Of a stretch of DNA of 64,000 nucleotides, positions 23,531-55,593 are shown piece by piece. The translations under genes and the position numbers were made by a program. Each line of letters begins with the position of its first letter. The first letter of the stretch is position 1. The DNA is taken from IMG/VR virus record IMGVR_UViG_3300014720_000002; one strand, 5' to 3'. This DNA comes from a virus. The notes under the pieces are model-generated. The model was given only the letters and a program-made list of their open reading frames with translations, was not told the DNA's origin and ran no database searches.

Positions 23531-24391
23531 ATGATGAAAGAGAACAAGATGGTGATCGCGGTCACGTTGACCGCACCCCTGCTGGGCGGGCTGCCCTTCA
23601 GCGACATTGCGCAGGACCACCTGCGCGTCAAGACGGAGAAGGAGAACAAGAAGGACCTCTCCAACCTGGAGCCTCGCGTCGCGGAGGAACTGGCCGTCGC
23701 TGCTGCCCAGGCCGAGCAGCGCCGGTTGCAACTCCTGGCCGCTGGGCTGGACGCCGAAGAGGCGCGCGGCACCACCGGGTTTGCCCGTGACGACATGGGC
23801 TTGTTCGTGTGGGACTATTGGTTCCGTGGCTTCATCAAGGAAGCCCTGGAGACGGTGATCGAGTGCGGCTGTGCACCCGCCGGCTTCAACCCCTGGAACC
23901 GCAAGAAGAAGGTCGATCAGTTGATCTTCGTGGAGCCGCGGCGCATCTATCTGCGCAAGCCGTCAGCGGAGCGCACGGCGTCATCGTCCACGGTCTGGAC
24001 CGAATCCCCCGGTTTCAACACCCGGCCGATCCGGACGGAGGATCAGCGCACTGGCGCCCAGCGCACGGCCATCGCGCGCAGCGAGGAAGTGCCGGAAGGC
24101 ACCTGGTTCGTGGCCGAGTTGGTGTATCTTGGGCCGGAGGAGGTCAAGGTCAGCAAGAGCGGCAAGTCGCAACCGATCGTGACCAAGGAGTTGATCGCAG
24201 ACATCCTCACCTACGGCCGCCGAAAGGGTCTCGGTCAGTGGCGGTCTGGTGGCTGGGGCACGTTCGACTGGCAGGAGTTGCCGGACAACAAGCTGGTGAT
24301 CAAGGCGTCCCGTGGTGTCGCCTCCGTGCCCAAGCAGGGCATCCACATCGAATGCACTCCCGGCTGTCCCCAGCCGGCCGTTGCGGTCTAG
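23531..24391 (+). CDS. Orphan Cas7-like RAMP protein (candidate Vipr-type guide-RNA-binding effector)
   Basis: RAMP architecture: N-terminal IAVTLTAPLLGG, GTTGFARD..GLFVWDYWFRGFIKEA, DQLIFVEPRRI, RPIR...RTAIARSEEVPEGTWF, and a C-terminal glycine-rich loop YGRRKGLGQWRSGGWGTF. A/C-rich leader AAAACAAACAAACGGT before ATG 23531. Confidence 0.85.
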   Translation: MMKENKMVIAVTLTAPLLGGLPFSDIAQDHLRVKTEKENKKDLSNLEPRVAEELAVAAAQAEQRRLQLLAAGLDAEEARGTTGFARDDMGLFVWDYWFRGFIKEALETVIECGCAPAGFNPWNRKKKVDQLIFVEPRRIYLRKPSAERTASSSTVWTESPGFNTRPIRTEDQRTGAQRTAIARSEEVPEGTWFVAELVYLGPEEVKVSKSGKSQPIVTKELIADILTYGRRKGLGQWRSGGWGTFDWQELPDNKLVIKASRGVASVPKQGIHIECTPGCPQPAVAV

Positions 24392-24407
24392 TTGTCGAGC
24401 ACAGCAC

Positions 24408-24442
24408 CCAGCCGGCCGGAGCATTTGCTTCCGGCCGGCTGG
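24408..24442 (+). terminator. Perfect 13-bp hairpin just downstream of the RAMP gene (terminator or processing site)
   Basis: CCAGCCGGCCGGA-gcatttgct-TCCGGCCGGCTGG; no U-tract follows. Confidence 0.5.
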
Positions 24443-25192
24443 TCTGCTAGTCTGAGCACATGCAAAACGACATTGGTCTCCCTACTGTAGTCCTGGCTGT
24501 GCTGGTGGTGGTCCAACTCTTGTGGATTGTCCGGCAGACGGACTTCGGCAAGCTGGTCAAGCGCAGCAATCAACTGCCCAAGTTCGGCGCCAACCCGGAC
24601 TATCATTGGGTGCAGATTCGGCGTGAGGGCGGCGCGGCCTGGCTGGCGCTGACTGACGTGGAACTCGACACTGCCATCAAACGGGCCGAGGCCAACGACG
24701 AAGATCGACCATGACCAAACAACAGGCCGCGCGCGTGCGGCAACTGATCCGGGCCTTGCGCTCGGGCAAATTCAAGCAGTGCCGAAACCGGCTTCGCTCT
24801 GTGAGGGGTGACCGGTTTTGTGCTTCTGGGGTGGCTTGCGAGCTTTATTCCCGGAACATGAAAGGCACGGACGGAGTCTGGCAGATGTCGGAGGATGGTG
24901 ATGAGCAGGAGTTTCAATCTGGGCCACAGTCGAACTGCCAGACGCTGCCGTATCTGGTGCGGCAGTGGTTAGGCTTCCCCGATGACACCCAGGCTTTCAT
25001 CGGGGCTGCGTTCGTGCATGAGTGGAATCTGGATCCGAATCTTGATGTGGAACGGGTTGGCTTGGAGTTGCTGAACGATGGCGTTCGACAGAGTGCTGGA
25101 TTTTCCAAAAGTCACCGCGGCATGAACTTCAAGCAGATCGCCTGTGTGCTGGAGCGCTGGCTTCGCCACCAGCCCATTTCGGACTGACTCCT

Positions 25193-25396
25193 ATGCTCAC
25201 GCTTACTGATAAGTCTCCCTGCCCTGTGCAAGGCAAGCATCACAACAAGCCAATGGAGAAGGTGCCGGCGGATTATCTGGACTGGCTTGTGGGACAGCCC
25301 TGGTGCCGGAGCAAGTATCCGGAGGTGGACGACTACGTGACGCGCAACCGCAAGGCGCTCGACATGGAGTTGCGGCAGATGGGCAAGCTGGACTGA
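25193..25396 (+). CDS. DUF3820-like small protein
   Basis: PVQGKHHNKPMEKVPADYLDWL fits the P(F)GK(Y)KG...VP..YL.W pattern. Confidence 0.6.
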   Translation: MLTLTDKSPCPVQGKHHNKPMEKVPADYLDWLVGQPWCRSKYPEVDDYVTRNRKALDMELRQMGKLD

Positions 25397-28340
25397 CGCA
25401 TGAACATCAACACCAATCTCTACGACGGCTACGAGGTGCATCCCTGCCGGCTCGTGATGAAGAACGGCACGGTTGTCGCCCGAGGCTCCACCTGGCAACC
25501 CCGGCTGGACCGGTGGATCGCGGTGGAGGTCAACCACGAGCAAGACCAGCATCCGGAGCACACCTGGTTCTGGTGCCTGTATGGGCACGGGTTCAGCGGC
25601 GGGCTGACGGACATCGCAGACGCGCCAACCAAGGACGAAGTCCTGTCGATAGCCAGCTACCTGAACGAGCACAAGCTGCTGCCGCCCTATGCGCGTCTGC
25701 TGTCTGCTGGCGACTTCTCGGCGCTGTTCCGCTACTCCCGGGTGGTGGTTCATCCGTTCAAGCTGGCGAAGCGTGGTGGCAGTTCCATCTACTTCAAGCG
25801 GGGCATGCACGTCCGGCACGGGATGCCGTCGGAGGCCACGGTCTGTGCGCCTGACGACAAGCATCTGTTCGCCTACGGCTTGTATGGTGTGCTGAGTGAG
25901 GGCGAGTGGCTTCAGGGTCGCCGACCGTCCGGAACGGCTGGTCCTTCAGAGTCTCTGGTCGATGACCGAGGAAAGGAAGAGCACCTGCTGGACTTCGCCA
26001 CTGCCGATGAAGCCGAACGTGCGGCCTGCTATGTGGCGACGCATGGCGTCCTTCCACCCATCCTCAAATGGCTGCGTTGAACTCGGCGGGCCTGGTCGAT
26101 GTGTTTGAGATGTTGCTGGCCGTCAGCCGGTTGCTTCCGGAGGGGCATCAACTGGACTTTGCGGTTTCTCCGCATTGCATCCATCTGCACCTGATCGGCA
26201 GGGCTGGAGAGGATGTGGCGACGAACCTGCATGAACTGGACGGACGTCCAGAACAGGTTCAGGAAATGCAGGACAGCCTGGCCGGACTGCTGCGCAAAGT
26301 GGCGGCACCAGAAAAGCTGAGCCCGCAGTCTGGCCTGCAGTCAGTGATGGCTGGTCTGCAGGCTTGGGTGGACGACGACAAACTGCCGGCTGCGTTCCGG
26401 CACAAGGCCGGGCTGATGCTGGCTGGAGTGAGAGAACTGAATGCTAAATCTTGAAAAGGATGAACACCGGCTGTGGGAACTGGCCGCGGCGTTTGCTGCT
26501 GCCAACGCAGGCGCTGGCGCAGCCTGTCAGATAGCGGATGAACTGGTGCTCGCGTTTCGCGCCCGGCGGCAGCACTCCGTAGGTCACTCGGGTCCGCCAC
26601 CTGCAGGCAGGCCGGCACCGGCGGCTCCGCCCCAGTCTGCGCGACAGCCTGAACCAACCGCTCCGCCAGTCTGGAAAGGCCCTAGCAACGATCCGCCGGT
26701 CAAGGCGGCTCCGTTGCCGGGTGCTGCTGCGCCCAAGCCATCGGCGCGTCGCGGCAAAGCGTTGGCGGACATGTCCATCAACGAAAAGCTGGCTGAATTA
26801 CAGCGGCTGCAGGCCAGGTTCACCGAGTCACCCACTAGCCTTAACCCGGAGGAGATGCAGGACATGGTGGTCTTGACGAATGACGAACTGCTGAAACGCA
26901 TCACTCCCGCCCATGCCTAAAGCTGCGCCGTTGATGACGGCCAAGTCCAGCCCGCTGCGACGTAGTCTCAACCAACTGGCCAGGAAGTTTTACCAGGCGC
27001 ATGGCTACACAGTGTCGTCAGAGTATGACTTCGAGCGCGCGGTGCATCCGCAAGAGGCCGGGATGTGGAGCTTGGCGGTAATTGCCCACGAGCATTTCAC
27101 TGGCGATACGCCGGACCCTGGAGAACTGGAGGACCTACCATGATCGATGTGTTTGACCTGACAGGTTTGGATCCGACAGTGACGCCACGGGAGCACGCGC
27201 TGCTGGACAAGCTGGACCGTGCGGAAGCGTCGCTGGTTGACTTGCTGCAGTTCATCCAGGCGCAGACCGACTTGCCCGATGGGCTGGCGGCGCAGGTGCG
27301 CGAGGATCTGGCGGCCATAAAAGTGTCGCTGCACGAGTCCGGATTCAACTACCAGCACTATCCGGAACTGCGGGACGAACTGCCCGTCTATTCGATGACG
27401 GACCAGCCGCCTACCTGCCCCAAGTGCGGGACCAGGATCAAGGTCTGGCTGCAGGGGGAAACTGGAAATAAGCAGGTGGTGAAGTGCCGTCCGTGCAACT
27501 TCATCTACCGGCTGGAGGAAGACGAAGACGATCATGATTAAGCTTAGGAAAGGTGACAAGGTGGTGTGGTGGGACGGAGAGCCAGGACATCTCGGCACGC
27601 GGCATTACGGACGGGTGGAACGGACGAAGCTGAAGAACAAGAACGGCGTGCCATTGGACTTCACGGCGGTGTTCCCGCGTCCTGGTGGCAAGCTGCACAA
27701 GCGGTTCAGCCAGCTTGACCGCGACACGGTGCTGCTGCTGGCGCCCCGTAGCGAGTGGGCCTCGTTCCTTACGTTCAAGCTGCCGGAACATGTCGAGGTG
27801 GCCAGGATTCCCGGCTGTGCGCAGCCGACTTACGGGCTCTTCAACATGAACGTGGCCGGGGTTGGCTGGTCGCAGTTGCACGGGGTCATGCGGTCTGAGC
27901 AGGAGATCCCGCTGGAGTTCTGGCGCCACGGCAGGACCAAGCGCGATCTGGATTGGTGTCTTCGTGCCGGCGAGAGCGAGGTAAAGCTCGACTGGCCCTG
28001 GCCCATCAATGGCGCCATTGCGGCAGCGCTGAAGGGAGTGGACATACATGAGTGACCGCCTGTTCGCCTACTATCTGGTAACAGTGTCGGAGGCTGGCGA
28101 TGTCCTGGAGCGTGGGTTCAGCAGTCCGCACGACGATCTGGCGCAGCGGCCGTATTCTGACGACTGCCCGGTCGTGGTCTGCTCAAATCAGGCGGTGCGG
28201 CGGGTGGACAGCAGGGCAGAACTGGACATGCCGCCCTGTCTAAACCCTGATTGCGGCAGGTCCATTTCCTATTTTGCCTGTGACCGCTGCGACATGTGTG
28301 GCGAGAAAGTGCTGCCGCTGGGGTCGGTCTTGGTTGTCCC

Positions 28341-28688
28341 ATGAAGCCGCCTTGCCATGCCTGCAGGGCGGTCTGCTGCAGGGACACGGGTGCTTGGCCG
28401 TTTGCCTGCGTGCTGAGCAGCCGTGATCTGCGGCAGCCGCATCTCCGCTCGGTGGCGGTGTGGCCCGCCGGCGGCAGCTTGGCGGTGCTGCCTTACAAGC
28501 ACGGTCGCTGCGTGTTTCTGAACCCGAAGACCAACCTGTGCCGGACTTACGCCGACAGACCGGAGGCCTGCCGTGACTTCGACTGCACGCAGTGCATTCC
28601 GGAGGGAGCGTTCCTGAAGACCAACCCTAAGGTGATCGACCTGATTGAAAATGAGCGACGAAAAGCTAAACCCAGAACAGGTCCGTGA
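28341..28688 (+). CDS. YkgJ-family cysteine-cluster (CxxCxxCC) protein
   Basis: PCHACRAVCC...GRCVFLNPKTNLCRTYADRPEACRDFDC. Confidence 0.8.
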   Translation: MKPPCHACRAVCCRDTGAWPFACVLSSRDLRQPHLRSVAVWPAGGSLAVLPYKHGRCVFLNPKTNLCRTYADRPEACRDFDCTQCIPEGAFLKTNPKVIDLIENERRKAKPRTGP

Positions 28689-31600
28689 GGCCATCCTGTC
28701 CGAGATGGCCCGGACGTTCTTTGTCACCGCCTACGCGGACGCGTGGGACAACAAGGAGCTTCCACCAACTGCACCTCACGCAGGGCCTGGCGACGAGTGG
28801 TTCGCTTGCGCTCCCGAGGAGACACCCCGCGCTGCGAGGGTGCTGGCTGAAAGCCTGGTGACGGCCATCGAGACACATGACGATGTGAAGGTGGAGGAGG
28901 TCTTTCAGCGCAACGCGGACCTGACCGAAGGCCATCTGAGCGAACCCACTCCGGACAGCTTCGGGTATTGCCTGGCCATGGAGTGCCTTGGGCATGGCGT
29001 TGGCTGGGGTGATGACCATCCGGAGCACAACCTCAACCTGCCGTATCTGGAGTGCTGGCTGGAGATCAGCATTCCGCCTTTGCCGATCACTGTGCGCAGT
29101 GACTGGATACTTCTGGACTCTCTGGAGGGTGGTCCTCTTTGGCTGACTATCGACCACACTGGCCACCGGTTCTTCGGCGATGAGGGCGTTCCGCCGCCGT
29201 TTCAGACTGTCTGCCGACCAGCCACCAAGCCATGATCCACATCGAAGTCATGGTTGAATCGCACCCGACGCTGATCTGCTGCCTTCACCGGCTGCCTGAT
29301 GGCGATCTGTTCAAACGCAAATACATCGGATACGGGCGGCGGGCCGCGGTGGCGCAGTTTCGTCGGGAAGTGCGGGAAGAACTGAGAAAGTTGAAAGCAT
29401 GAGCAATCCATTGGTCGAGAAGTTGAACGAGCAGGTGAAGTCGCTGTGCCAGTGCTGCCAAGACCGGCTGTGCGACATCGCCAGGCACGAGTCGGCCGTC
29501 AGACTGTGGCGGGACGAGTTTTGGCCAGGCACCCGGCTGGACACTGTGCGCGAACGGCTCCGTGAGGCGTTTGTTGGCATGGACCTGCGGCAGGGCACGC
29601 CCTATTTCCGGCTGCATGGTCGCCCAGTCATCAAATCGCCTGTCGAGCATCTGCCGGTGGCTCAGCTTACGGGTAGCCTGGCCGACACGCTGATATGGCT
29701 GGAGTTCCGCAAAAGTCAGCGGGACAAGCGGCAGGTCGCTGAAGCGGCTGCCATGCGGCGTGGCATCATTAGCCGGGAGCGGGATTGGCGGCGGCTGCCG
29801 CTGGCCATCCGCACGGCGGCAGCCGCCATCATTGAGGAACAAGAACATGCCACTGGCTAAGAAGTGCTGGCGCGCTCGGGTGCGCGAGATCTACGACAGT
29901 CCCGAGGAGTTGGAGGCGTATGACCGCAACTACCGCATCTGTGCCCGGCTGGGATTCTTAGATGTGGCTGAACTGTGGGAGACCAACCCTAAGATCGAAG
30001 GTTCGGTTTATCCTGCTGACTTGCGCGTGGTGCCTTCGCCAGACGCCAAGCGACAGCCGGTAAAGGTGCAGATCGAGCCGGAAGGTGCCGCGGGTCCGTA
30101 TCTGGTTGGGCTGTTGCCGAAGTCGATGAGCGGGGTGTCGGCGCGGGATATTGTGTTCCGGGTCAAGACGCGCAAGGACGACGGCTTCAAGATTCTCCAG
30201 GTGCTTACGGAGGGTCGTTGGCGTCCGGTGTGGGCCTGCAATCCGACATTCTTCAAGCAGCACTTCCGAGCAGTCAAATGAGCAGAAAAACTCACAGGCA
30301 GGACGCGTGGCGTGCGCATGAGGAGATGGCGGCGGCGCTGGCCAATGACATTGCCGAGGGGATCGATAATGGCGAGTCACGCAGGAAGCTGCGACAGGCC
30401 GTCACCTACTTCGCCATGAAGGCACATTACGAGCAGCAGGCCCGTCTGCTGGTTGAGAGCCGGCTGAAGGTCATGACACTCGGGTTGGAGTTGATGCAGT
30501 CGGTGGTGGTTAGATAAACGAAGTAAAACCATGTCAGAATACGATGTAGAAGTGACCCGCACGGCGGCTGAAACAAAGACGTTTCGCGTGATGGCCGAGG
30601 ACGCCGAAGCGGCCAAGGACAAGGCCGTGGAAGCCGCGGCCAACACGGTATTCAACAACCCCGGATGTCCGACCTACGAGGCGCTGCTTCCTTACCGTGT
30701 CTTGGGCCATCAAAAGTAGCATGAGCGAAACGACCAAGTTCAAAATGGAGTGCCTGGCCGAGAATGCGGCGCTGTTCCTGGAATGGCTACGCACGCGCGG
30801 CGGGCTGGCGATCTGGGAGAGTGCTGACTTTGGCCGGGCTGGTGAGTCTTGGACAACACCTGCCCGGACGGTCTGCGGAAAGGTCATGCAGAAGCCGTAT
30901 TGGTTCTGCAAATCCGAGCCGAAGCAGATCGTTGCAGATCCGGCCGAGGTGGGCGTGTTCACGGCGGCGCTGTTCAAGGAGTTTCCGGTGCGGTTGCGTG
31001 CTGCCCGAGGTGGATTGGTGTTCAAGCTGCAGGACTCCAGCCAGCGCAGCCTGGACCGGGTCATGCAGTCGTGTCGCAACAAGCATCCCGGTTGTGAGGT
31101 GTATTGGGAACGTGGCGGCATCGAAATAACGGATCGGCCGGCCATGCGTGTCTATTACGTCACCGGCGTGAGGCCATTGCTGGAATGGGCGGCAGAGAAA
31201 GGATTGTGACTTATGAGAATTCGATTGAGCCAGCAACATGGAGTCGCTCCGATGCTGACCTGCTGCCAGTTGTGCGGCGGGGATACGAACGAGTTGCTGT
31301 TGTTGGGCGCCAGTGCTGACAAGGTGTGTCGGGAGACGTTCGGCCAGTCTTATAGCGGCAGCAGTTGCCAGCGCATTCCGCACGGCATCTGCGACAAGTG
31401 CAAGGCGATGCTGGACGGCGGCGCTGCGTGCTACATCTGCCCTGAGCGCCAGGCTATCCTGATGTTCTCCGCGGAGTGCGTCAGCCGCAACGGCTGGCCC
31501 GGCGCTGGCAAGGTCTCCCGGCTTCGGCCTGAAGACATGGCGAAGCTGCAGGCGATGGTGGCTGAAGCGCCGGCACCTGGTGTCGAGCATGCAGCATGAA

Positions 31601-32323
31601 GACTACCGCAGAACGGTTCGCGGCCTTGTCGGGTCTGATTCATGGACGCGTGGGCAAGACGTCGGCAGGGCTGGGTCTGGTTGACTATCCGGTTATCGAA
31701 CTGGAGATGGAGCGCGACGATCAGCCGCAATTTCCATCACGTTACGTGATCTTTGCCCTGCGGCTGGATGATCGACGGGTCTGTTACGAGGTCACACCCA
31801 TGCTTAAACCCGAGCATGGAGATGCCAGCCAGGATGTCTGGCGTTCGGCGCGCGAGCACCAGCGGTTTTGCCGGATCGTCCGCGGCTGGCGTGACTGGCT
31901 GCGTCCCCGGCTGCGCAAGCTCGGTCTGCGGCTTGGGAGACGGGTCGAGAGTGTCTATTTAACATGAACAATAGCTTGATGGATCTGGCCCGCCGCCGGG
32001 CTTGGGTTTGGCTGCCGGTTTTCCTGGCGGCAGTGCTGATAAACCCGTTTCTCCACGCAGGCCACCCCTGGAAAGGGCGCAGGGAAAGCCTGGATAGCTG
32101 GCGTGAGTATGGCACTGAACTAGCCCTCGGCTTTGCGCTGATCTTCTGGTGGTGCGCACTGCTGAGCCTGGCGTGCATCATCAAGATACTCGCGGTCCGC
32201 GCTGGACAATGACTTTCGGCGCCCCTGCACGGGTGCCGGTAAATACGCGGCAGTCACCTGGCCGCAACTAGGGCGATAAAGCCCGATGGTGAGGAAAGCC
32301 ACCCGCTGGGGAGCAATCATCAC

Positions 32324-32524: not shown

Positions 32525-32796
32525 GCCGCAACCATCAACGGCTGCCCGGGATCGCGCTGGCGGTTCCGGGCAGCCGTCTTTATGTTCAAGATCGAGCACT
32601 TTTTTCTGAGCGGCTGGGAGGATGCTGGTTGGATTGAGACGGGTGCGGATGATGCGGATCGCCCGTCGCGATTTGCGACTTTGGAGGCGGCCAACCAGGC
32701 CATCGACGAGTTTATCGCCGACAGCGTGGCTGCCCATGCTGCAGGGGATTTATCCGCTGCTTACGACCGCGCGGAGTTCCGGGCGGTTACTGTTGA

Positions 32797-37533: not shown

Positions 37534-37955
37534 GGTGATGGCGAGGCAGCGGCAGGTTCTGTTGCTCATTGGTAAGGTCCGTTAATGTCCGGCGCTGTGG
37601 AGTAAAGTGACGGTGAGGCTGGGCTGGGTCACGCATGGTGTTGGTATCGTCCCGATAGGTTACGTTCAGCAAGGTAGCGTGAAGGTGCAGCGCCGGTATG
37701 TCGGCGCCTGGTTTGATCTGGTCTTGCGCAGGTGGTGATCCGTAGCGTCAGGTGAAGTTTCGTCCGGGTGTGGCTCGTCAATGTCGCGCACTGTTCAGCG
37801 AAGGCACTGTGGATCTGGGCCTCGTTCTGTGGCGGTGTTGTGTTGTCCCGTGAGGTTTCGTATTGGTGCGGTAATGCACGCCTCGGCGCAGTGCCGGCAG
37901 GCTACGGTTAGGCCGGGCAATACAAGGCAACGCTTAGCAAAGGTTCAGCAACGCA
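37534..37955 (+). repeat. Degenerate NGY-NN pentamer array A (candidate VIPR-like guide RNA array)
   Basis: 81 pentamers from 37540, 69 exactly NGY. Units of 31,41,31,41,11,36,36,36,31,31,31,46 nt each start with GGY. Fills the gap from a stop codon (37536-38) to the next ATG (37956). Confidence 0.85.
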
Positions 37956-40900
37956 ATGAGCATATTCAATCCCAACGCACTCCCAGACCGGTCACCGATG
38001 GCCGCCATCCGGCCTGAGCACTGGCCGGAAACGCTGGCCGAGTTGTCCTGCCATGACGTGGTCGTGAACTCGGTGCTGCAGGCCAGCGGCCCGCATTATG
38101 CAAACCTGTCGGAGCAGGAATCACTGCGGCTGATGGTGGTGCTGATGGCGCAGCGGCATCAGCATGTGCTGGCGGAAGCCATAACGCAGGAATTCAAACG
38201 TGCTCCGCAGCCAATCGTGCTACCCCACAAACGAGATGATCAGAAAGTTCGGTGAAGGACTCAGCACCCGGCGCGAGACGCACGAGGAACTGGGCGGCGG
38301 CTACGGACCAGACAAGCACAAACCGCTGGTGGCGGAGTTCATCGCCAACGACCAGGTGCAGATCTGGCCCAAGCGTTCCAGCCGCAAAGTGCAGATCGGC
38401 CTGCTGGATCTCTACGCCATTATCGTGCGCAAGAACGCCAACCTGGCCACCCTGGAGAAGGCGCGGGATCGGAAAGCTAAAAAGGAGAGCCAGCGAAAGG
38501 CGCGGCAGATTGCCGCCGCGGATCGACGGCTGCGCAAGGCGGCCAAAACAAACCTATGTTGAGTGAACAAGAGCGGCTGTGCTACCGGTCGCTGAAGGAA
38601 GGCGAAATCATCCAGCATGGTGATTTGGAGCTTGGTGGCGGTGAGCACGACCACTGGACGCCCGTCCTTCATCGGATCGGAAGCCCAGCCCCAGCGCCGG
38701 AATATCCGGCCCACAGCAAGTTCCTGCGACGCATCCTGTGCGCCTGGAAAGCCGACGATGACGGTGTCCTGCATGCCGCCTGCGGACAGGCGTATTGCTT
38801 CGAGCACGAGTTCACCGTTGGTGGTGCCTACCAGTTCTGCCCAGGATGTGGAAAACCCATTCGCCTATGCCCACCAACCTTGATCCCGGAAAGCGAGAGT
38901 TGAAGCGCACCCAGCGCACCAAGCCATGCCACGACTGCCCGTTTGCCAAGCACACGGCACCTGGTGCGTTGGGCGGTTCCACCCCTGAGGTGTATATGGG
39001 GCAGATCCAGGGTCCGTTCTGGCTGCCCTGTCACAACAGCAGCGGCTACGAGGAAAGCCGACGCGACCCGGGACATGAGCAGTGCGCGGGTGCTGCCATC
39101 TTCCGGGCTAATACGGGGCTGGAGCAGTTGATGCCTTCGGCCTTGCTGCATCTGCCTGCGGATGACAGCCAGGTGTTCCGAGGACCGGTGGAGTTCCTGC
39201 AGCACCATCTGGGCTTTACGCCGGAGCAGGTGCTGGCCTGGTTTCGCGCCAACCCGCCACAGAAGCTGCTGCAGGACGAGCTTGCCAAACAGGAAGCACA
39301 GGTGATGTTGCTGCCCAAGAAACCATGAGCGACCTCAAAACCTACGGCAAAGGCACCCGGGTCATGTGCGACCACCATTTCAGCGGCAAGCCGCGCGGCG
39401 TGGTGGTGGCCGTGCTGGAGCCTGGGCGGGGTAGCAGTGCCACGGAAGGCCGGATTCAGGTTCGGCTGACTGAGACGGTTGGGCCTTGGAAGAAAGGCGA
39501 GCTTCGGGAACTGCCGGCCTGGCTGGCGGTGCCACTGGCTCAGCTTCGTCCGCCGCGCGCTGGCGAGTTTTTCACCCGCGTCCTCACCGACTATCAATGG
39601 GCATGAAACAACTGAGCGACCTACAGCCGGAGCCATCCGTGGTGGATGCCAAGGTGGATGAGGTGCTCATGCCTGGCCAACTGAGCCAGGCGGAAGTGAA
39701 GCAGGCCGCCGACAAGGCGGGTCGTGACAAGCTGCGCGTCCAGGGTGCGGCGATACGGATGATTTTCAGTGGCCTTGGTCCGACGAACGACTGGTTTTCT
39801 CATTATGACTGACCGAAAGTTTTACTACCGGGAGTTTCTCATCCGGGTTGTCTCACCTGAGCCGGTGGATTCCATTGATGCGCTGCAGCGGGTGCTGAAC
39901 GATGAGCAGATGGGTGTCTGGTGCTCGCGCGAGCCTCAGCCCGCCCGTATGCTGGACGGCAAACAGACGGCTGACGAATTGAAGCAGATGGGGGCCACGC
40001 CACCGCTCTTCGACCTCGACGACGCCGGCAACGATCTCGATCCGGACGAGTGAACACCATTTTCGATGTTTATCGCCATGGCGCCAACCTCGGTTGGTCG
40101 GCTGACCAGGTGGTGACGGAGGTGCAGCGGCGGTTTAAGGCTGGCACCAAGCTGGGCGCCAACCATCTGCGCAAGCAGTATGCCGACACGGTGATGATGG
40201 ACCGGATCCAACTGCTGGCCATGTGCAAGGACCTGCGGGCCGTGTTGCACAGCTTCAGCCCGGACGGTCGTCCGCATGTGCCGTCGCTGGAAGATCCAGC
40301 CTGGCCGATGGTGCCGGCGGCGCTGCAGTCCAGCGCGGAACTGATTCAGAAACTAACCCCGACCGAAAATGAGTGATCCGATTGAGCATGCCGTGGCCGG
40401 ACTGTTACAGAAGGCCATCGACGAAGGCACCAAGGAAGCGACCCATGCTGCGGTGGAGATGATGTCGGCGGCCTGTGGTTACCTGCTGCCCCGGGTTTCT
40501 TCCGTGGACGTGAACTTGAAGAACGGGCATGCGCGCATCGAGTTTCATTCTCCATGGCGGTCGCTCAACCGCAAGCCGTTGCCGAAGACGCAGCAGCGGG
40601 TGGCTTTACTGAAGGTGCGGCTTGCCCTGACCAGGTATTTCCGGCTGTTCCCACAGTCTGCCGTGCCTCCGATCTCGGTGGTCAACTGCCCGACCTGTAT
40701 CGGCCGAGCGCCCATCAAATGTGCGGAAATGGCCTGGCAGGAGTGGCGTCAGCGGTGCACCAAGGTGGTGCAGGACGCCATCGACCAGAAGGGCTGGGTG
40801 GCTGGCTCGCTGGATGTGGACAAGGCCCATGGGCGGCGGGTGGAGATTCACGGCTATCTGATCGACGCCAAGACCGCCAAGCCGGTGAGCGCCGTCGAAT

Positions 40901-45973: not shown

Positions 45974-48373
45974 CTGCATGAACTACATCTCGGACGGGAC
46001 AGTGATCGATCAGCGCACCTACGACGGGCTGTGTGACATCTTCAACCGGGTGGCGAGCCATCTGCTGAAGCAGGCCCGGCGAGCCGTTGCGCACTCGGCC
46101 ACGGGCGGGATGGGCTGCCGCTATCGGTTGTGCGACGGACGGGCCTGCGCGGTCGGTTGTCTCATCACCGATCAGAATTATCATGACGGGCTGGAGCGCA
46201 AGAATTCCGATGACCCGCTGGTTGTTTCCGCCGTGACGGCCAGCCTCGGCCGGTCGCTCACCAAGCATGAGCAGCAGTTGCTGGAAGCGCTGCAGCATGT
46301 GCATGACATCGACCTGGCGACCTGGGGCGATGATTCCGGCATCCCAGCTTGGTCGATCGTGGCGTCGCTGAACCGGGTGGCGCACCGGTTTGACCTGCCT
46401 GGACTACCGAAACCCAAAGACGCACCAGCCGGCGTATGAGCACTCCGAGACTGGAAATTCGGCAGCTTGGTCTGACGCACGTCACCCAAAGCTGCCCGTG
46501 GGGCCTCTACAGCCGTCACGGGCATCGACTGCTGTGCTCGGACGGACAGGTGCGCGCCGCCACTCTCGCCTCTACCCCGGACACGTTCTTCAGCGTGCCG
46601 GCGTCGGTGCGGGTGAAGGGCAAGACTGTCTCGGGCTACATGACGGTTGAGGAGGCTGGTGGCGGCAAGCTGCGTGCCTACGTGTTCCGCCATCATACGG
46701 CTCACCGGGACAAGCTGCCGGCCTGGCCTGACCGGTTCACTCCGGAGCATGAGAGGCTGGTGAACAGTGTGATTACGCATGATCAATCAAAAGGAACTGA
46801 CCGCGCTGGTCGCTGAGGGGGCGACGCTGCTGGCGGTGTATCGGTTGCGGGAGGATGGCGATGGCGATTTCATCGCCTTGTTCGACATCGAGAACTGCGC
46901 GGAGCGGTTCGCCGACAATACCGGCGACGGTGCGGCTGTGTTGGCTGCCGTTGTTCAGGCCGGCCTTGCGGACGACGGCGAGGAAGCCGTGTGGGTCTGC
47001 TTCCAACGGATGGCTGATGTGGTGGACATTCTGGAGGGAGCCCAGGAACGGTGGGAAGCTCAACGTGAAAAGCCGCACAACCCCGTGCCGTGAATGTCCC
47101 TGGCGCCGAGCTTCGGCGCCAGGATGGCTGGGTAGCGAGCAGACGCCGGAGGAGTGGGTGAAGACAGCGCATGGTGAGGTGACCGTGGAATGCCACACGG
47201 AAGCGCCCAAGCTGTGTGCTGGCATCGCCATTTACCGCACCAACGTCGCCAAGAAACTTCGCAACGCCAGCGTGCCCATCCTGTCCGGCGATAAGTCTAA
47301 GGTGTTTGCTACGCCGGCGGAGTTCATCCAACACCACCGGTCTGGTGTGGTCAGCAGTGAGATCAAAACATGAGCAAACTTGATGCAGCGGTCGAAGAAG
47401 TGCAGCGCGCTTTGGAAGGGTTCACCGAGGACTGCTTGACCAATCATCCGGAACAACGGGTGGAACTGGAGGCGGCCTGGTTGCTTATCCGGCGTCGGCT
47501 GTTGCGCCTTCCCTCAGATGGGTTGCGATGTGGGGAGCGGTTGTATCTGGATGGCAATCTGCATGCGGTCTGCACTCAGCCAGGAGGGGTTGAGCACACG
47601 CATCACGATCTGGACGCTCAGCAGGCCATCGCGGCAGGGCTGGCCCGTCCGGCCTCGGACACAGATCGGCCGCATGCGCCAAGTGAGGTGCAGAACCAGC
47701 AGGTGGCTGAGTGGCCTTGGCAGGATGCCGGGGTGCATCCATTCTCTCCGCATGAACTTGGCCTGAGGGATAGCGAGGGCGCGCAAGACTGGATCAGCAA
47801 TGATGAGTTGGTAGGGTTGTCGGAGGCCCGCCCTGGCGGCATCATCGGCTACATTCATCGACTGCACGCCGACCGGATTGCCGGTCTTTTGAACCTGGCC
47901 GGGATGGTGGTTGAGAACGAACATGATTAACATGGTGGAACACATTCGGGCAGACCGGCGGTTGACTGCCCAGGCCAAGGTCAGTCAATTCTCTTGATCT
48001 ACATGACCACCGAGGAACTCTTCGACGCGGTGGCGCCCATCGCCATCTACCACTGCACGGACGTGCGGTTCCAGCAGCGGGCCAAGGTTGGCCTGCGCAA
48101 GCTGAAGGCTGCCGGAGTGCAGCTTCCGGACGAACCGCTGGATGATTTGGCTGACTGGGCCAAGGACGAGCACGACCGGCTGTTCATTGAGATCGTCAGC
48201 GATCTCGCCCCGGAGTGGACCTGGGATTACGACCGCTGGGGTGCCAAGGCATGGAAAGATGAACGCGGCGCGCTGGTGTTCGCCGGTGACGCGCACGATC
48301 AGTTTCCTTGGTATGAGACGGCGGCTCTGCTGAAGGAGCGGGTGCTGGAGCATCAACTGGAGGGAGCGACGGC

Positions 48374-49030
48374 GTGAACGACGAGCAACTGATCAGTTTG
48401 ATGGACAAGGTCGCGGAGGATCACGCCAGCCGAGGGCAGACCTACGCCGGCGGACCCTATCGCAAGCACCTGGAGGATGTGGAGCGCCTGCTGAGGACCG
48501 CCTGTAACGTCGCCTGGGTGGAAGAGGAGTCGGTCGGCGCTTTGCTTGCCGCCGGCATCCTGCACGACTGGTTCGAGGACTGCTTTGACGGGTCGCACAA
48601 GTTCTCACACTGGCGCCTGACCGGAACGCTGATTGACTGGCAGGGTGAGTTTGGCGTGCCAGCCGTCAGCCTGATGATGGCGCTGCGCTGCTCCGATCCG
48701 CCCGGCATGTCGCGACGTGAGGCCAAACGGGCTATCTTGCCGGTTATCGTGGCCTGCGAAGGTGCCCGGGCAGTCAAGCTGGCTGATCGGATGGCGAATC
48801 TGGAGCAGAGCATTGCTGACCGCAATCGAAAGCATCTGGAACGCTACATTGAAGAGGCTAGGCAGTTAGCGCCGGTGGCGGACCAGCTTGAGACTCCGGT
48901 TGATGCAGTGCAGGAGACTCGACACTACGCCCCGGTGCGAGACTACTTGGCTGGTTGCTATGCGGATGTCCTGGCTCGGGCCGCCGAGAGTTTTCATACT
49001 CTGCGCGGCCCGACCAATGCGGTGAAGTGA
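48374..49030 (+). CDS. RelA/SpoT-type HD-domain (p)ppGpp hydrolase-like protein (small alarmone hydrolase-like)
   Basis: H..GQTYAGGPYRKHL..V...AAGILHDWFEDC...EFG...RAVKLADRMANL. Confidence 0.78.
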   Translation: MNDEQLISLMDKVAEDHASRGQTYAGGPYRKHLEDVERLLRTACNVAWVEEESVGALLAAGILHDWFEDCFDGSHKFSHWRLTGTLIDWQGEFGVPAVSLMMALRCSDPPGMSRREAKRAILPVIVACEGARAVKLADRMANLEQSIADRNRKHLERYIEEARQLAPVADQLETPVDAVQETRHYAPVRDYLAGCYADVLARAAESFHTLRGPTNAVK

Positions 49031-49376
49031 CGGTATTGGAACGCTTAGCCGCGTGCCGCCATGCCTAGCACAGGCTACGTGCGGTCCGGTCAGGTCTCGT
49101 AATGGTAAAGTGACGCAAAGTCGGGCTTCGTCGAGCGATGGCCGGGTGTGGTCAAGCAGGGTGTGGTGGTTCAAAGTTAAGGTGTCGCGTCGCCTAGTCA
49201 GGTCACGCGCCGGCAATGGATGGTGCCGTCCGGTTTAGCAGCGCAGCGGCATAGTGACGAAAAGGCCTGTAACGTGAAGCACAGGTAAGGTGCCGTGAGG
49301 CATGGTGAGGTCTGGCACAGGTAAAGCAGAGTCACGCGGGGTCCGGTTCAGGCGAGGATAGGTGGAGTCACGCAGC
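49021..49376 (+). repeat. Degenerate NGY-NN pentamer array B (candidate VIPR-like guide RNA array)
   Basis: 69 pentamers, 68 with central G, 63 exactly NGY. Units of 11,41,31,36,41,31,36,36,36,31,26 nt, all starting with GGY. Ends directly at ATG 49377. Confidence 0.9.
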
Positions 49377-50708
49377 ATGCAGATTCGATTGAAAGAACGC
49401 TGGCAGGCGTGGGTGGAGGTGTGGACCGCCATCCGCGCCTGCCATGCCGGCAGGAACGAGAAGCTGGAGGTGCGGCGCACCGGACAGGTCTGGGACGTCG
49501 GTGCCAGACAGTATCGCGAGCGGCTGGAGTTCCGGGCCGCCGACAACCCCGGCTGGGAAGGCTACAACCGCTCCCGGAACCTGCTGGCGACGAAGGTGCC
49601 GCGCCTGTCCAAGGCGCTGGAAAAGTTGAAGTGGATATGAGCAAGAAGACGATGACCCTGGTGGTCGAGATCGAGTATGATGGGTTGGAAGGACCGTTCC
49701 GACCTGCCCTGGTGAACAAGCTCAAGGACCGGCTGCACGCCATGGTTGAGCGCGAGGCTGGCGAGGGCGGGCTGTCGCCGGACGATGGCAGTGTGGCCGT
49801 GGCAAGCTGGGACGCCCGGGTGGCTGATGGGCCGCTCACGCTGCTGAACCCGGCGCAGGTGCGCGATCTCAGCAAGCTGCTGGATTACACTGAGGCGGAT
49901 GAAGAGCGACACTACGAGGAGAGCAAACCCTGCCGCAACCACATCTGGCATTCGATTCGCCGGCTGAGGAAAGCTACACCCGAACCATGAACCTTTACTC
50001 ATTCGGAGCCGCGGCCAGGGAAGGCGCCTGCCGAGCAACCTGGGACCCTAAGCACAGCAACTTCGTGATGCACATCTGGCAGAAGGGTAAGCCGACGCCC
50101 ATCGCCACCTGCCGGGATACCACGCAGGAGAAGTGCGAGGCGGCGGCGCGGCAGGTCAAGGAGGCGCTGGAGCTTCAGGCGCGGCTGGAGTCGCCGGAGT
50201 TCAGCGCCGCGCTTAGGCTTGCCCTGGAGGGCACGCTGACTACCCGGCTGCGTTCGGTGCACGGGCTGGACCCGTTCTCACGGAAGCGCACCAAGCGCGC
50301 GGCTGAGTTGGAAGTCGAGTTCTTGGTTGGCGCCATGAGCGCCATCAACGCGACGTTTCCTGGGCGTGACTCCGAACTCAGCAGCAAGGTGCCGGTTTAT
50401 TGGCCCATGTGCCTTATGAGTGGGCGCTCGGTGCTGCAGTCCGCGAAGAAGTCATGAAGCCACTATATTACTACGTCCTCATCGACAGTGAAACCTTGGC
50501 GCGGTTGCAAGCACGGGTTGCCACCAGGTTCCGATTCCACGGGCGCATCCAGGTATTTCGGATCGAGCGCAACCAGGTGATCAAGGCAGAGAGTCTCTGC
50601 ATCCAGTGCCCAGACCAGTTGTCCGCTGAAGTGCGGGATGATCTGCTCAGCTTTGTGGCTGGTTTCGTTGAGGGGGCCGACCTGCAGTCATCGACCGCCC
50701 ACCTGGGT

Positions 50709-50736
50709 GTAACGGAGCCGTCGGTTGTGACATAAG
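50709..50736 (+). promoter_or_regulatory. Class I promoter GTAAC-N18-ATAAG
   Basis: Exact 18-nt spacing; followed by a structured leader and ATG at 50800. Confidence 0.7.
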
Positions 50737-51194
50737 ATGGTGAAGGAAGAGCTTCCTTTACCGGCAGTGTTGCCGGGCAACCATCAACGAAAGCCAAGTA
50801 TGAAAGCACTGTGGAACCACCTGAGAATCGATCAACGTGCCGCCCTGGCCACTGCCTTTGGCGTGGTCTTGATCGTGGCCATCGGCCTGCTGCTCGCCCG
50901 TTACGGCGTGCCGGGCAGCCAGAATGCCGGGATCGTCCGGCTGTCGGTTGAACTGCCGCCGGGTCAGTCCCGTGCGGAGATCCTCCTGCCGGGCGGCTCG
51001 TCCGGTAGCTGGGACGAGATCCAGCAGATGATCAGCAGCATCCGCATCACGCGGAATGACGGCAGCACGCGGGACTTCAGTCCCCATCAGTTCGACAAGC
51101 TCAGCCAGGAGACACACGCGTTCCGGGAGGTCACGTTAATCACGACCAACCACGCCAGGATCACTTTGGCCAGGCAACCTTGAACGCAGCGAAC

Positions 51195-51250
51195 GGCCCG
51201 CTGCCGGTCCAGTAGGATCGGCAGCGGGCCGGTTATCCAATCCTTTAGTT
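51195..51250 (+). terminator. 16-bp hairpin followed by CCTTTAG
   Basis: GGCCCGCTGCCGGTCC-agta-GGATCGGCAGCGGGCC (one G-U pair), then TCCTTTAGTT at 51241. Confidence 0.6.
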
Positions 51251-52012
51251 TATGGGTGTGCATCAGCGTAAATTCGGGAAGGAGAATCCTCTCAAGTTCG
51301 ATTGCGTCACGTTCATGACGCTGGCGACCAGGCATCGCTTTCGCGAGGTAAGCGGCTGGTTTCCGCAGGAGGAAGAAACCTACCGTCTGCCGGCTGAACT
51401 GCAGTTGGCCAACTGGTATGGTAATGCGCCGCAGCAACCGGATCAGGCGGCCATGCAGCATGATGAGTCGGCTGACCTGGACGCGCTGGCCGATGTTACT
51501 CGACCGTTCGGCTCCGAGCGGTGGCATGACTTTGATCGTCTGCCATTGGCAGAGCGGTTGGAGGCTCTGAAGCTGTTCTACGATGATCTCACCTGCGACC
51601 TGCAGTCGCTGCGGCAGAGATTCAAACCGGAGGAGGTAGAGAACTACACCGGCCCTGACAGTCCTGCTGCTGAGTTGAAAAAGCTGGTCCGTTACCGGCA
51701 ACGTGTGGCGCGAAAAATCGAGCGCGTGCGCCGCACGATCGACAAGCAGGAAAAGCTACGGCTGCAGATGCAGGCGTCGCGCGACCGCCTACGGATTGTT
51801 TGGGAGAGGTCGGACCGCGCTAAGGAGGAAAAGCAGGCGTCGGCGAAATGGCAGCGTCAGTTGGAGTTGCTGACCTATCTCGCCGAGGCCAAGGCGAAGA
51901 GCGATCACTACGCCAACAAATCCCGGAGGCACAGCCCGCAGGCTGCCATGGCTGATCGTGGAAGTCAGGCACTCGGCGGGTAAAACCGAGTGCCAACAAA
52001 AGTAAAAAATCT

Positions 52013-52312
52013 ATGTCAAATCCAAGCGCAACGCCGAAGCCCAAGACGCCAGCCGAGTTGTCCTGCACTGACTTGTTAGGATGCCCGTTCTGTGGTGAAC
52101 AGCCGGAATACTCGCCAGCCGCCAAAGACCCAAACAACCCGCCGTATGGCTGGCCACACACGCTAAACCACAACTGCAAAATCATCGGAAGGCAAATCTG
52201 CATCCGCTGCGACTACTCCAAATGTGAGGACACAAGAGCGGCGGTGACTGCCGTGTGGAACACTCGCTGGCATCCTAACCATCAATCTGCGGCGCGACAA
52301 CTGTTCGCTTAA
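52013..52312 (+). CDS. Lar-like (restriction alleviation) zinc-finger protein
   Basis: LLGCPFCGEQ...C...AAVTAVWNTR matches the CPFCG...A...WN.R pattern. Confidence 0.65.
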   Translation: MSNPSATPKPKTPAELSCTDLLGCPFCGEQPEYSPAAKDPNNPPYGWPHTLNHNCKIIGRQICIRCDYSKCEDTRAAVTAVWNTRWHPNHQSAARQLFA

Positions 52313-53404
52313 ACTATGAGTAAGTCGGAGAAGCTGAGAAAATTGGCCAACGCCGTTCGGCGTTACCGCGGCCTGCTTGGATCGCCTGGGCATGACGGCG
52401 TGGTCCGGTGGAAGCAGCCACCCATACCTTCAGCCAAGGACGATGTCCGGCGCTGGCTGGGCAGGCTGGGCCTGGATGTGGAAGCGCATCTGCGGCGTGT
52501 GGACGAGTTTCCTTCGCTGCAGCAGTTCGCGGAATGGCTGGAAGAGTTGGAGAATGGCAATGAGCACGTTGTGGCAGGAACTTCGGAAGTGGGAAAATCA
52601 TGAAAAGAAACTGGCTGATCAGGCATTACCAGGCGGCGCTGGTGTTCGCGAGCCGGACCCGCAATCGCCCCCTGTCCGACTACGTTCGACAGGAGTTGAA
52701 AAGGTGGTCGGCGGCACCGTCCTCTGGAAGCCGGTCGATCGCCTAGCGGCTAAGATGCTGGCCAAGTCGCCCTGGTGGGCGCAGCCAGTGCATGTGCCGA
52801 CACCGCCACCAGCGGCGCCGGCTGCAGTTGAGAAGGCAAAAAAGAAGAGAACACACAAGATTATGGGAGACAACGCTGTCATTGTGGAGACAGGAGACAA
52901 GCGTGCGCCACAGGATGTCCGTCCGCGGATGAACGACGCGAGCTACACGAGCGCATGCGGGCTGGAGGTGCACCGGATCAACGGGCAGGACATGATTTCG
53001 CTGGAGAGTGCGCAGACTGTCCTCTGTGCCGAGATTGCGAAAATGCCCAAGGAGACGCGACCGCTGGTTTTGGCCGCCCAGGACGCCCGACGGATCGTTA
53101 ATGAGTTGACGGACGGCATTGGCGCCGATCAGGAAAAGTTCAGGGTCAGTGCCAAGATGTTCCTGGAGGATGTCCGCCAGACCCGGTTTGCGGTGGTGCA
53201 GGAGGCCAGCGCAATGATGACGCCATTGCGCGATGTCCGCACTTTCTTCCTGGGGCCGGATTACAAGGAGCAGGTGACCAGGTTGAAGGAGTTCGTGGAA
53301 CTTTGCGAGCGGCTGCAGAAGCTCAAGGAGTCGGGTTTCCTGGATAACGTCGCGGACACCATGCTGCGACTGGCAGATCGGCCAGCCACCGGCGCCTGAT
53401 TGAA

Positions 53405-53486
53405 TGCGCTGTGGTGCTTGGAAAGGTCTCGTGCGGTCGCGTTAAGTCACGGTCCAGTGAGGGCGTGGCAAAGTCCTGCGCGGAAC
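53405..53486 (+). repeat. Short NGY-NN pentamer array D
   Basis: 16 pentamers, all with central G, 14 NGY; two 6-nt phase steps at 53451 and 53462, each followed by GGY. Starts 6 nt after the stop at 53399. Confidence 0.7.
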
Positions 53487-53529
53487 CGCACCAGTTGGGC
53501 TTCGGCCCGCTGGTGCGGTTTCCTTTAGC
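53484..53529 (+). terminator. Nested hairpin (11-bp outer stem plus GGGC-UUCG-GCCC) followed by CCTTTAGC; closes array D
   Basis: AACCGCACCAG / CTGGTGCGGTT is a perfect stem. Confidence 0.7.
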
Positions 53530-53540
53530 CATCCACTCCC

Positions 53541-53568
53541 GCAACCAAGCACGCCGCTGTGTCATAAG
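53541..53568 (+). promoter_or_regulatory. Class I promoter GCAAC-N18-ATAAG
   Basis: Exact spacing; lies upstream of the MYG1-like gene. Confidence 0.7.
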
Positions 53569-53647
53569 CCTTTGGACAGGACTGTTTCTTGTCTGGGAGC
53601 ATCCGGCCTCCAACCATTTAAGCAACTGCCGGAAGGAGAACTGTAAC

Positions 53648-54730
53648 ATGTCAAAGATCAAAGAGGCGGCGATCCTCAAAATCGTCACTCATCCCGGCCG
53701 GGCGCACCGGGATGAGTTTCTGGCCATCGCCATCGTGCTGGCCAGCCTGCCCGCCGCGCAGATGCGGCAGGTCGCCATCGAACGCCGTCAACCCAAGCGC
53801 GAGGACACCCTGGATAAGGGCGTGCTGGTGCTGGACATCGGCGGCGGTGAATTCGACCACCACCAACTGTCCCCAGAGGCGCCGGCGACCTGTGCGCTCA
53901 CCCTGGTGCTCAAGGACCTCGGGCTGCTGGAGCAGGCGCGCGAGGTCTGGTCGTGGCTGGAGTTTGTCGAGGTCATGGACAGCAAGGGACCGGGGGCGGT
54001 CGCCTCGCGCGCCGGCGTGCCCTGGGACAAGCTCTCCGGGCTGACCATGAATCCGGTCGAGATGTGGGCGCTCCATTGGTTCGCCAACAACCCGGACAAC
54101 ATGAAGGACGTGCTCAACGGCGTCGGTGCCCGGTTGTTGTCCGAGCTTGCGGACTACCGGTCGGCCCTGACCCTCCTGGACGCGCACGCCCATGTGGTGT
54201 TCGTGCGCGGGGTGGCGTTGCTCGACCTCACATTCACGAGCGACACGACCGCCGTCAACAAGTGGCGCATGCAGCACTGCCCTCACGCCAAGGGCAGCAT
54301 CATGAAGGACGACCGCGGCGGGGGCTACACGCTCTACGCCTGGCAGATGGGCGGCGGGTCCGGCTGGCTGGACTTCCGCCGGCTGGCGCATCCCGGCATC
54401 ACCTTCATCCACAATGGAGGGTTCCTGGCCAAGACGCGGATGACGGTGACGTTCCGTGAGGTTCTGGATCTGCTGACACAGGCGCTGCCGTCGGAGCCGG
54501 TCTGCCTCGGCAGCATGGTGGGCAATGGGTTCTCGGTGCAGGGAAGCTGGCAGCCGGCGCCGACAGATGACGGATCGCATTTCGTCATGGTGACGATCGG
54601 GACGGCCAAGCACGGGTGTGTGGAAGGTATGCTCTGCTTCCGCACGGAGGCGGCGCTGCGCTCGGCCATGAGCCATGTGCGCAACCGCATTGAGATCAGC
54701 CTGTCGAAGGGGGAGGTGGCCCATGCTTGA
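53648..54730 (+). CDS. MYG1-family (UPF0160) metal-dependent nuclease-like protein
   Basis: IVTHPGRAHRDEFLA...VLDIGGGEFDHHQ...DSKGP...FIHNGGFLAKT. Confidence 0.85.
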   Translation: MSKIKEAAILKIVTHPGRAHRDEFLAIAIVLASLPAAQMRQVAIERRQPKREDTLDKGVLVLDIGGGEFDHHQLSPEAPATCALTLVLKDLGLLEQAREVWSWLEFVEVMDSKGPGAVASRAGVPWDKLSGLTMNPVEMWALHWFANNPDNMKDVLNGVGARLLSELADYRSALTLLDAHAHVVFVRGVALLDLTFTSDTTAVNKWRMQHCPHAKGSIMKDDRGGGYTLYAWQMGGGSGWLDFRRLAHPGITFIHNGGFLAKTRMTVTFREVLDLLTQALPSEPVCLGSMVGNGFSVQGSWQPAPTDDGSHFVMVTIGTAKHGCVEGMLCFRTEAALRSAMSHVRNRIEISLSKGEVAHA

Positions 54731-55208
54731 AGTGCGCATGCACTGGCGCCGAGGTCATCTGCACACAGTGAAGTTCGGCAAGGGTCGGGAGAGTTCCCGG
54801 CTGGACTGGTTCGAGCCGATATTGGTCAATGCGCCGGAAGGAAAGGAGGTGAACGTATGAGCGAAAAGAGTGAGCAAGTGCTGCGGGACGCCATCGAAAA
54901 ACATGTTGGCGCACTACTTCACGCAGAGTTGCAACGGGACGAACTGCATGTCTATCTGTCCTGGGACAAAGCTAGTGGAAAAGTCACGGTTAATTGCTTC
55001 TCGACCTTGGCGCTGAACCTTCTCGATCGATCGCATAAGACCACCGTCGGCGGCTTGGACGAGTTGATCGACAGCGTGTTGGAGGGCTGCGACCGAAAGC
55101 AGGCCAAGGTTTGTCTGGACCAGATACAGGCAAGCTTGGACAAGGCTCGTGCTGGCTGGCAGAAAGTATGCGCTGAGTGGGATCGGGAACATCGACCTGC
55201 GAATCGCA

Positions 55209-55593
55209 GGTAAAGCAAAGGTGAGGCGAGGTGTAGCATCGTTGCGTGCGGTTCAGGTGTAGTGCCGTGAAGATGGGTAATGTAAAGCGCCGGCGAGGTG
55301 ATGCTTGGTGTGGTGGCATCGCGTTTGGAACAGTATTGGAGACGCGGCGCACAGCATGGTAGCGCAATGTGGTGGCGTCGTATCGAGGCGCTGAGTATTG
55401 GCCTGGCACGGCGGCGGTGGGCACCGTAAAGCTACGGCATGGTCACGTCAGGTTCAGTGCAGCACAGGTAACGCGACGCAAGGTTCGGTTTCGTGCTGTC
55501 ACGTATCGGTTTGGGTGGGTCGAGCGCTGGGCTGTCAGGCAAAGGCGAGGCGGGGTCTGGTCCGGTTTCGTTACGTCGTGCGCTGTGCCGACG
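55209..55593 (+). repeat. Degenerate NGY-NN pentamer array C (candidate VIPR-like guide RNA array)
   Basis: 75 pentamers, 74 with central G, 66 NGY. Units of 11,36,36,46,36,26,36,31,41,36 nt plus a final ~50-nt unit. The upstream TAA (55211-13) is embedded in the first pentamer. Confidence 0.9.

Follow-up and report, generated by a model that had tools for sequence, protein, structure and literature searches.

We analyzed a window of 64,000 nt, the whole stretch of DNA under study, which belongs to the IMG/VR virus record IMGVR_UViG_3300014720_000002. The record is a single contig of 167,647 bp (62% GC, CheckV completeness 86%) from lake-water metagenomes, and nearly all its genes are on the + strand. 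The source is a large uncultured phage with its own genes for a multisubunit-type RNA polymerase, to which isolates such as Salmonella phage Arash are only distantly related. The window contains a vipr-like gene (P0002) at 23531..24391 of the + strand, encoding a 286-aa Cas7-like RAMP with the C-terminal G-loop GLGQWRSGGWGTF, and, 13–31 kb downstream of it, four arrays of pentameric repeats. We consider here the gene and the arrays as a candidate RNA-guided system of the recently described VIPR (Viral Interference Programmable Repeat) class.

The arrays are non-coding and co-oriented, all on the + strand, and each starts 0–7 nt past the stop codon of a co-oriented upstream open reading frame (ORF). 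Array 1 (37540..37957) comprises 13 units with ∼81 pentamers, starting 1 nt past the upstream stop codon and ending at the start codon (ATG, 37956) of the following ORF. Array 2 (49032..49376), with 10 clean units and ∼67 pentamers, is bounded by the 49028-49030 stop codon on one side and an ATG at 49377 on the other. The small array 3 (53400..53483; ∼16 pentamers) immediately follows the stop codon at 53397-53399, and array 4 (55220..55590; 10 units, ∼74 pentamers) starts 7 nt past the stop codon at 55211-55213. Arrays 1 and 2 extend to the next ATG. Each of the other two is closed by a strong hairpin, and the two hairpins resemble each other.

The arrays were identified with a phase-slip hidden Markov model (HMM), in which the second position of the pentamer is G, the third is C or T, and a register slip of +1 is permitted. 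In the window, the model called 37572-37958, 49018-49373, and 55221-55590, on the + strand only, and a lenient run added an 84-nt array at 53406-53489. The same model applied to both strands of the whole 167,647-nt genome found no further array, the lenient run yielding just two ∼50-nt segments within ORFs. The arrays were not called as tandem repeats by Tandem Repeats Finder, and no Rfam family was found. A spectral scan for period 5 is weakened by the register slips and was left unused. The arrays are identical in two independent Logan assemblies of lake-water metagenomes, at the depth of 129x and 175x; the runs X3 and X4 contained just identical low-depth fragments and were uninformative as to variants.

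The four arrays could be parsed into 37 units with 244 pentamers, the length of every unit being 5n+1 nt. The second position of the pentamer is G in 232 cases (95%) and the third is C or T in 220 (90%), while at positions 4–5 all 16 dinucleotides are used. The first base, N1, is G in 34 of the 37 pentamers that open a unit, compared to 76 of 207 elsewhere, which is near background. The extra base that closes each unit is not G in 35 of 37 cases. Hence, a unit consists of GGYNN followed by NGYNN repeats, three to ten repeats in all, plus one extra base, and neighboring units are shifted by one nucleotide in register. All 36 units with at least four pentamers are unique. The preliminary description of this DNA had reported four co-oriented non-coding arrays of about 240 pentamers with a fixed GY every 5 nt and variable positions unlike in each unit, and the parse agrees with it on both counts.

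The protein encoded at 23531 has no sequence match in Pfam, PHROG, or PDB, and its neighbors in the ESM Atlas are viral hypothetical proteins. An AlphaFold2 model based on an alignment of 15 homologues had the predicted local distance difference test (pLDDT) score of 76.7. The best Foldseek match of this model was type VII Cas7 (E 1.1e-8), and the best VIA-align match was Csm3 (9g9a_D; Z 11.7, root-mean-square deviation 3.9 over 168 residues), the first 44 rows of the latter search all being CRISPR RAMPs. The modeled fold is that of a Cas7/Csm3-like RAMP. A profile search produced 2,555 clusters of relatives (at 50% identity), mostly of about 200–220 aa. Two additions, a helical insertion of ∼40 aa and an extension of ∼35 aa at the C terminus, are common only to the 23531 protein and its three closest relatives; relatives with 75–86% identity occur on short contigs.

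The gene is intact, and every family-invariant residue is present. In particular, the invariant G-loop of the family, G-x-G-Q-W-R (here G-L-G-Q-W-R-S-G-G), aligns with G-V-G-D-W-R-P of Vipr from Escherichia phage SUSP1 (KT454805), the hhalign probability of the family profile against SUSP1 Vipr being 84–88% (E 3e-6 to 8e-6). In the cryo-electron microscopy (cryo-EM) structure of SUSP1 Vipr, W178 and R179 grip the second and third bases (G2 and Y3) of every repeat, with D177 in contact with G1 (10.64898/2026.04.26.720927). The replacement of this Asp by Gln236 in the 23531 G-loop would fit the free first base of the pentamers, in a comparison with one example on each side.

As the arrays are located 13–31 kb from the gene, adjacency does not link the two, and we used relatives of the protein to connect it with the arrays. 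There are 505 such relatives in IMG/VR, and 80 loci of 20 kb each were taken for the survey. In 59 of the 80, a co-oriented array starts within 700 nt downstream of the gene, mostly at a distance of 6–50 nt. A further six have an array just upstream and three have one 2–3 kb downstream, so that 68 of 80 carry an array within 10 kb of the gene, while in the remaining 12 there is none within this distance. The flanks serve as an internal control, because arrays almost never occur elsewhere in these 20-kb loci. The 73 arrays of these loci comprise 1,105 interior units and follow the grammar described above: 81% of units open with GGC or GGT, the scaffold positions are 96% G and 92% Y, the first base is free outside the opening pentamer, and most units have 4–8 pentamers. 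The loci with a Vipr relative and no array within 10 kb are L011, L012, L020, L033, L037, L047, L049, L055, L069, L071, L076, and L078; they may have detached arrays or arrays with another repeat consensus.

The same linkage is seen among kin phages. The complete 204-kb phage G002, collinear with the source phage, has the gene and, directly downstream of it, one 1.17-kb array of 50 units. In the 200-kb phage G004 (98% complete), the gene is missing and no array occurs anywhere. Thus, the presence of arrays follows that of the gene in this group: G002 has both, G004 has neither, and the source phage has the gene and four arrays. Two neighboring units in G002 (G002:C1:75930-75981) have the same NN words (AA AA TA GT GA) and different free first bases, which fits NN, rather than N1, as the putative carrier of information. 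In the source phage, the gene and the arrays lie within a 56-kb stretch, at about 7.2–63.5 kb of the window, that has no counterpart in G002, where ∼12 kb are found instead. Apart from them, this lineage-specific accessory region consists of small ORFs on the + strand, almost none of them with a Pfam or PHROG match.

Among class 1 CRISPR systems, the Cas7 backbone proteins (Csm3, Cmr4, type VII Cas7) provide the best structural matches (Z 10–11.7) and share the RRM core and the glycine-rich loop with the 23531 protein, although the identity is ∼12%. Unlike these systems, the source phage has neither a repeat-spacer array nor Cas1, Cas6, or other cas genes, and the periodicity is 5 nt rather than the 6 nt of the class 1 Cas7. 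The system does not qualify as a class 1 CRISPR-Cas effector: no CRISPR-like direct repeats and no Cas1 or Cas6 match were found in the 167.6-kb genome. The preliminary description had put forward a Cas7-like RAMP with VIPR-like pentamer guide arrays, noting the absence of cas1/2/3/5/6 genes and CRISPR direct repeats from the window, and had named a structural match to Cas7/Csm3 and the co-occurrence of the RAMP family with 5-nt-periodic arrays as ways to check it. The modeled fold, the G-loop alignment to SUSP1 Vipr, and the linkage in relatives and kin phages support the core of this proposal.

VIPR, a CRISPR-related silencer of DNA guided by RNA, was described in 2026 as a stand-alone viral RAMP with RNAs of alternating GGY and NN, in which NN reads DNA with one base skipped (10.64898/2026.04.26.720920). 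The preprint also names alternative YNNNG repeats and staggered arrays, in which guide RNAs (vrRNAs) come from positions overlapping by 1 nt, and lists seven types and six vap genes. We consider it highly probable that the 23531 protein is a Vipr-family RAMP and that the four arrays are the source of its vrRNAs, arranged in the staggered format. The system of the source phage apparently belongs to the published VIPR class, of the "staggered array" kind as the preprint's text presents it. Both comprise a stand-alone phage RAMP and pentamers that combine a constant G-Y scaffold with variable bases, with successive guides offset by one nucleotide and no tail between them, and with neither cas genes nor CRISPR repeats. 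The source phage differs in that its arrays lie away from vipr, in four blocks 13–31 kb downstream, and no vap gene was recognized. The preliminary description had suggested a distinct subtype, based on the relaxed first base and on the distance between the arrays and the effector gene. The first ground falls: the relaxed first base is the family norm, together with 5n+1 units, and since YNNNG is NGYNN in another phase and staggered arrays are named in the text of the preprint, these features do not define a new subtype. The second stands as an unusual layout. The split of the arrays into four blocks 13–31 kb from the gene is the only unusual feature, and it is a difference in layout, not in mechanism.

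A characterized system for comparison is the type II VIPR of SUSP1, with Vipr (ALH47069.1), vap1, and four ∼100-nt vrRNAs, studied by cryo-EM (10.64898/2026.04.26.720927). The source phage system is similar to it in the RAMP fold and in the G-loop with the conserved W-R pair. On the other hand, the SUSP1 vrRNAs flank the gene and consist of 9–16 strict GGY/NN repeats, each vrRNA having a conserved structured 3' tail, whereas the units of the source phage are tailless, with 3–10 repeats and a first base that is free beyond the opening pentamer. Moreover, the G1-contacting Asp is Gln in the source phage, the protein is 286 aa long compared to 195 aa, and the sequence similarity is restricted to the G-loop. 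The tails that mark type II (the SUSP1 / P. fulva clade) are not seen here, as hairpins stand only at the ends of arrays 3 and 4, one each. Therefore, lacking 3' tails on each guide, having fewer repeats and no evident vap gene, the system is not type II.

By analogy with SUSP1, the arrays would be transcribed as 3' extensions of the upstream ORFs, and the transcripts would be processed so that each unit gives one guide. Each pentamer would be bound by one Vipr protomer, with the G-Y scaffold bases flipped into the protein and sequestered. The two variable bases of each pentamer would be presented, and these bases would jointly read double-stranded DNA, one base being skipped per pentamer. Such binding, without a nuclease, would then repress target transcription, the target most probably being located in a competing mobile element or in the host. 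In the source phage, the guides would have to act in trans, from four sites 13–31 kb downstream of the protein gene. Scans for sigma-70 promoters and terminators gave results at chance level.

The skip code was tested in an all-against-all comparison of 1,297 units with 2.9 Mb of viral loci under seven readings, with word-shuffled controls. The NN reading with a 1-nt skip produced 386 matches, compared to 314 +/- 18.6 in the shuffled controls (z about 3.9). No excess over the controls was observed for skips of 0, 2, or 3 nt or for three-base readings. Hence, the 1-nt skip of SUSP1 is the sole reading in excess in the family of the source phage too. Codon-like word order may be a partial cause of this excess. 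Decoding the guides as wobble-skipped codons gave no recognizable protein motif and was rejected; the correlation of NN frequencies with codon positions 1–2 (r 0.42–0.55 in the source phage, 0.13 family-wide) was too weak for use.

Under the same range of readings (skips of 0–3 nt and three-base readings), no self-targets above the word-shuffled controls were found in the genome of the source phage. Published VIPR systems likewise lack self-targets, according to the text of 10.64898/2026.04.26.720920. Cross-targeting was not found among the kin phages G000, G002, and G004. An 18-base guide from 55544 had 0 matches in IMG/VR; in prokaryote genomes it had eight, in unrelated taxa and contexts, which is approximately the chance number, and they did not converge. 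The 32 IMG/VR matches of a 16-base guide from 55467 all fell in AT-rich contigs, without convergence of a second guide. Two foreign guides overlapping at ∼47920 of the window were dropped, as their units were poorly parsed.

Several observations speak against the assignment of the arrays to a VIPR system. First, no natural target of the window's guides was found in IMG/VR, in a set with one genome per prokaryote species, or in kin phages, and under the NN code the units of 4–9 pentamers specify 8–18 bases, which is little for unique targeting. Second, the excess of matches with the 1-nt skip is modest and is gone for long units, those with at least eight pentamers performing no better than shuffles against the 2.9 Mb of viral loci. 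Third, the alignment to the characterized SUSP1 Vipr is limited to the G-loop region of ∼52 residues, and the basis for pairing the four arrays with the 23531 gene across 13–31 kb is the family-wide association. Fourth, the sequence is found in DNA runs of lake-water metagenomes only, with no RNA run among the listed holders. Finally, a Pfam search of the neighbors recognized no vap accessory gene adjoining vipr or the arrays. No conserved neighbor gene was found in the 80 relatives either, the genes seen there being methylases, SSB, DnaB, and DUF1376. With six vap genes listed for seven types in the preprint's text, one type may have no vap.

Some other features of the locus should be mentioned. 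Terminator-like hairpins stand at the end of array 3 (53482..53529, +; minimum free energy, MFE, -34.5 kcal/mol, z -5.6) and at the end of array 4 (55590..55638, +; MFE -36.9 kcal/mol, z -7.5). Both contain CACCAGTTGGG...CTGGTG...CCTTTAGC, and within the window CCTTTAGC is confined to these two hairpins, which may be paralogous terminators or an array-end element. In relatives, hairpins follow arrays in 17% of cases compared to 6%, which is not significant, so this is no family-wide trait. The genes following arrays 3 and 4 (53648-54730 and 55369-56433) have weak matches to MYG1/UPF0160 and family-2 glycosyltransferase; no other ORF flanking an array matches Pfam. For the gene between arrays 2 and 3, relatives were seen at the domain level only, without synteny. 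Further upstream, a 1,055-aa ORF (4129-7296) has RNA polymerase beta-subunit-like segments and ∼33% identity to Salmonella phage Arash and Vibrio phages D69, D181, and D148. Weak PHROG matches of the same ORF, thymidylate-synthase and terminase-like, suggest an inserted element.

Another strong hairpin (24408..24442, +; MFE -36 kcal/mol, z -6.65) lies directly 3' of the vipr stop codon, at the site occupied by the array in relatives. This would fit the present arrays being relics of one array, once adjacent to vipr, that rearrangement and gene insertion had fragmented and displaced, its pieces no longer being guides. Adjacency is indeed the norm in relatives, and the region as a whole is confined to this lineage and is presumably unstable. 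However, decay would blur the scaffold, whereas its 95% G and 90% Y are on a par with relatives and the GGY opening is kept in 34 of 37 units. Furthermore, vipr is undamaged and retains every family-invariant residue, and the four arrays share one strand and start right past a stop codon, as adjacent arrays do. We consider it very unlikely that the arrays are relics.

The arrays could also serve another protein. The preliminary description had counted one RAMP gene with a G-rich loop; the gene and the loop are there, and "one" holds for the window only, as the genome encodes a second, minimal RAMP outside it. This protein, RAMP2 (154 aa, G-loop GLSPFGSKFGFGRF), is encoded between SbcC and an SF2 helicase at G000:C1:164473-164934 (L083:4474-4935), and in the source genome its reading frame is open for ∼140 codons beyond the conserved end, overlapping the helicase start. 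It belongs to a conserved family and could be the partner of the arrays, alone or together with the 23531 protein: its model is a confident Cas7-like fold (pLDDT 93, Z 11.6), and over its full length it shows remote homology to the Vipr family (hhalign 86%). Nevertheless, in kin phages RAMP2 belongs to the core genes of the replication module, beside SbcCD and the SF2 helicase; no array was found within 10 kb of its relatives in seven kin loci, either with the G-Y model or in a scan for G-only periodicity; and it is present in G004, which has no array in 200 kb. For these reasons, RAMP2 is an unlikely partner. In addition, its G-loop lacks the W-R pair that holds G2 and Y3 in SUSP1 Vipr. Taken together, a role of the arrays in serving RAMP2 or both RAMPs seems even less probable than their being relics.

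The detachment of the arrays from the gene, their distribution over several transcription units, and the absence of identified targets could alternatively mean that the array RNAs are decoys, soaking up the Vipr of rival phages as an anti-VIPR sponge and not guiding the phage's own protein. Yet a decoy would not need 36 different units, the adjacent arrays of relatives are equally hypervariable, and the source phage keeps an intact vipr of a family that normally adjoins such arrays, which leaves this possibility with little credibility. Similarly, a 5-nt rhythm that were a feature of DNA or mRNA unrelated to the RAMP (for example, helical phasing, a protein-binding tract, or a translational spacer) would agree with arrays 1 and 2 exactly filling the gap between stop codon and ATG, but it is scarcely plausible given the tight family-wide linkage to the RAMP gene, the pattern of presence and absence in kin phages, and the strict strand specificity.

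If the four arrays are guides of the 23531 Vipr, their detached layout may itself be functional. With every array at the 3' end of its own accessory transcription unit, distinct sets of very short guides (8–18 specified bases) would be produced at separate stages of infection and supplied in trans to one Vipr, as a distributed guide regulon in a phage that has an RNA polymerase of its own. The short guides might then act collectively rather than each having one target, and the core 154-aa RAMP2, having no arrays, would be used outside any repeat-guided system. We put forward these suggestions together, as a speculation that is rather unlikely to hold in full. The very short units, both here and in G002, where units of 4–5 pentamers specify 8–10 bases, raise a question of specificity that published work on type II does not answer.

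The source phage demonstrates that guide arrays can sit far outside a 20-kb window centered on the gene and can be split among several transcription units. In the text of the 2026 preprints, VIPR loci are delimited by 20-kb windows around the protein gene. With detached arrays, such gene-centered surveys would undercount guides or call systems array-less, as could be the case for the 12 of 80 relatives that lack an array within 10 kb. Should the arrays indeed act in trans, the source phage would be a natural case of Vipr and its guides being produced from separate loci.

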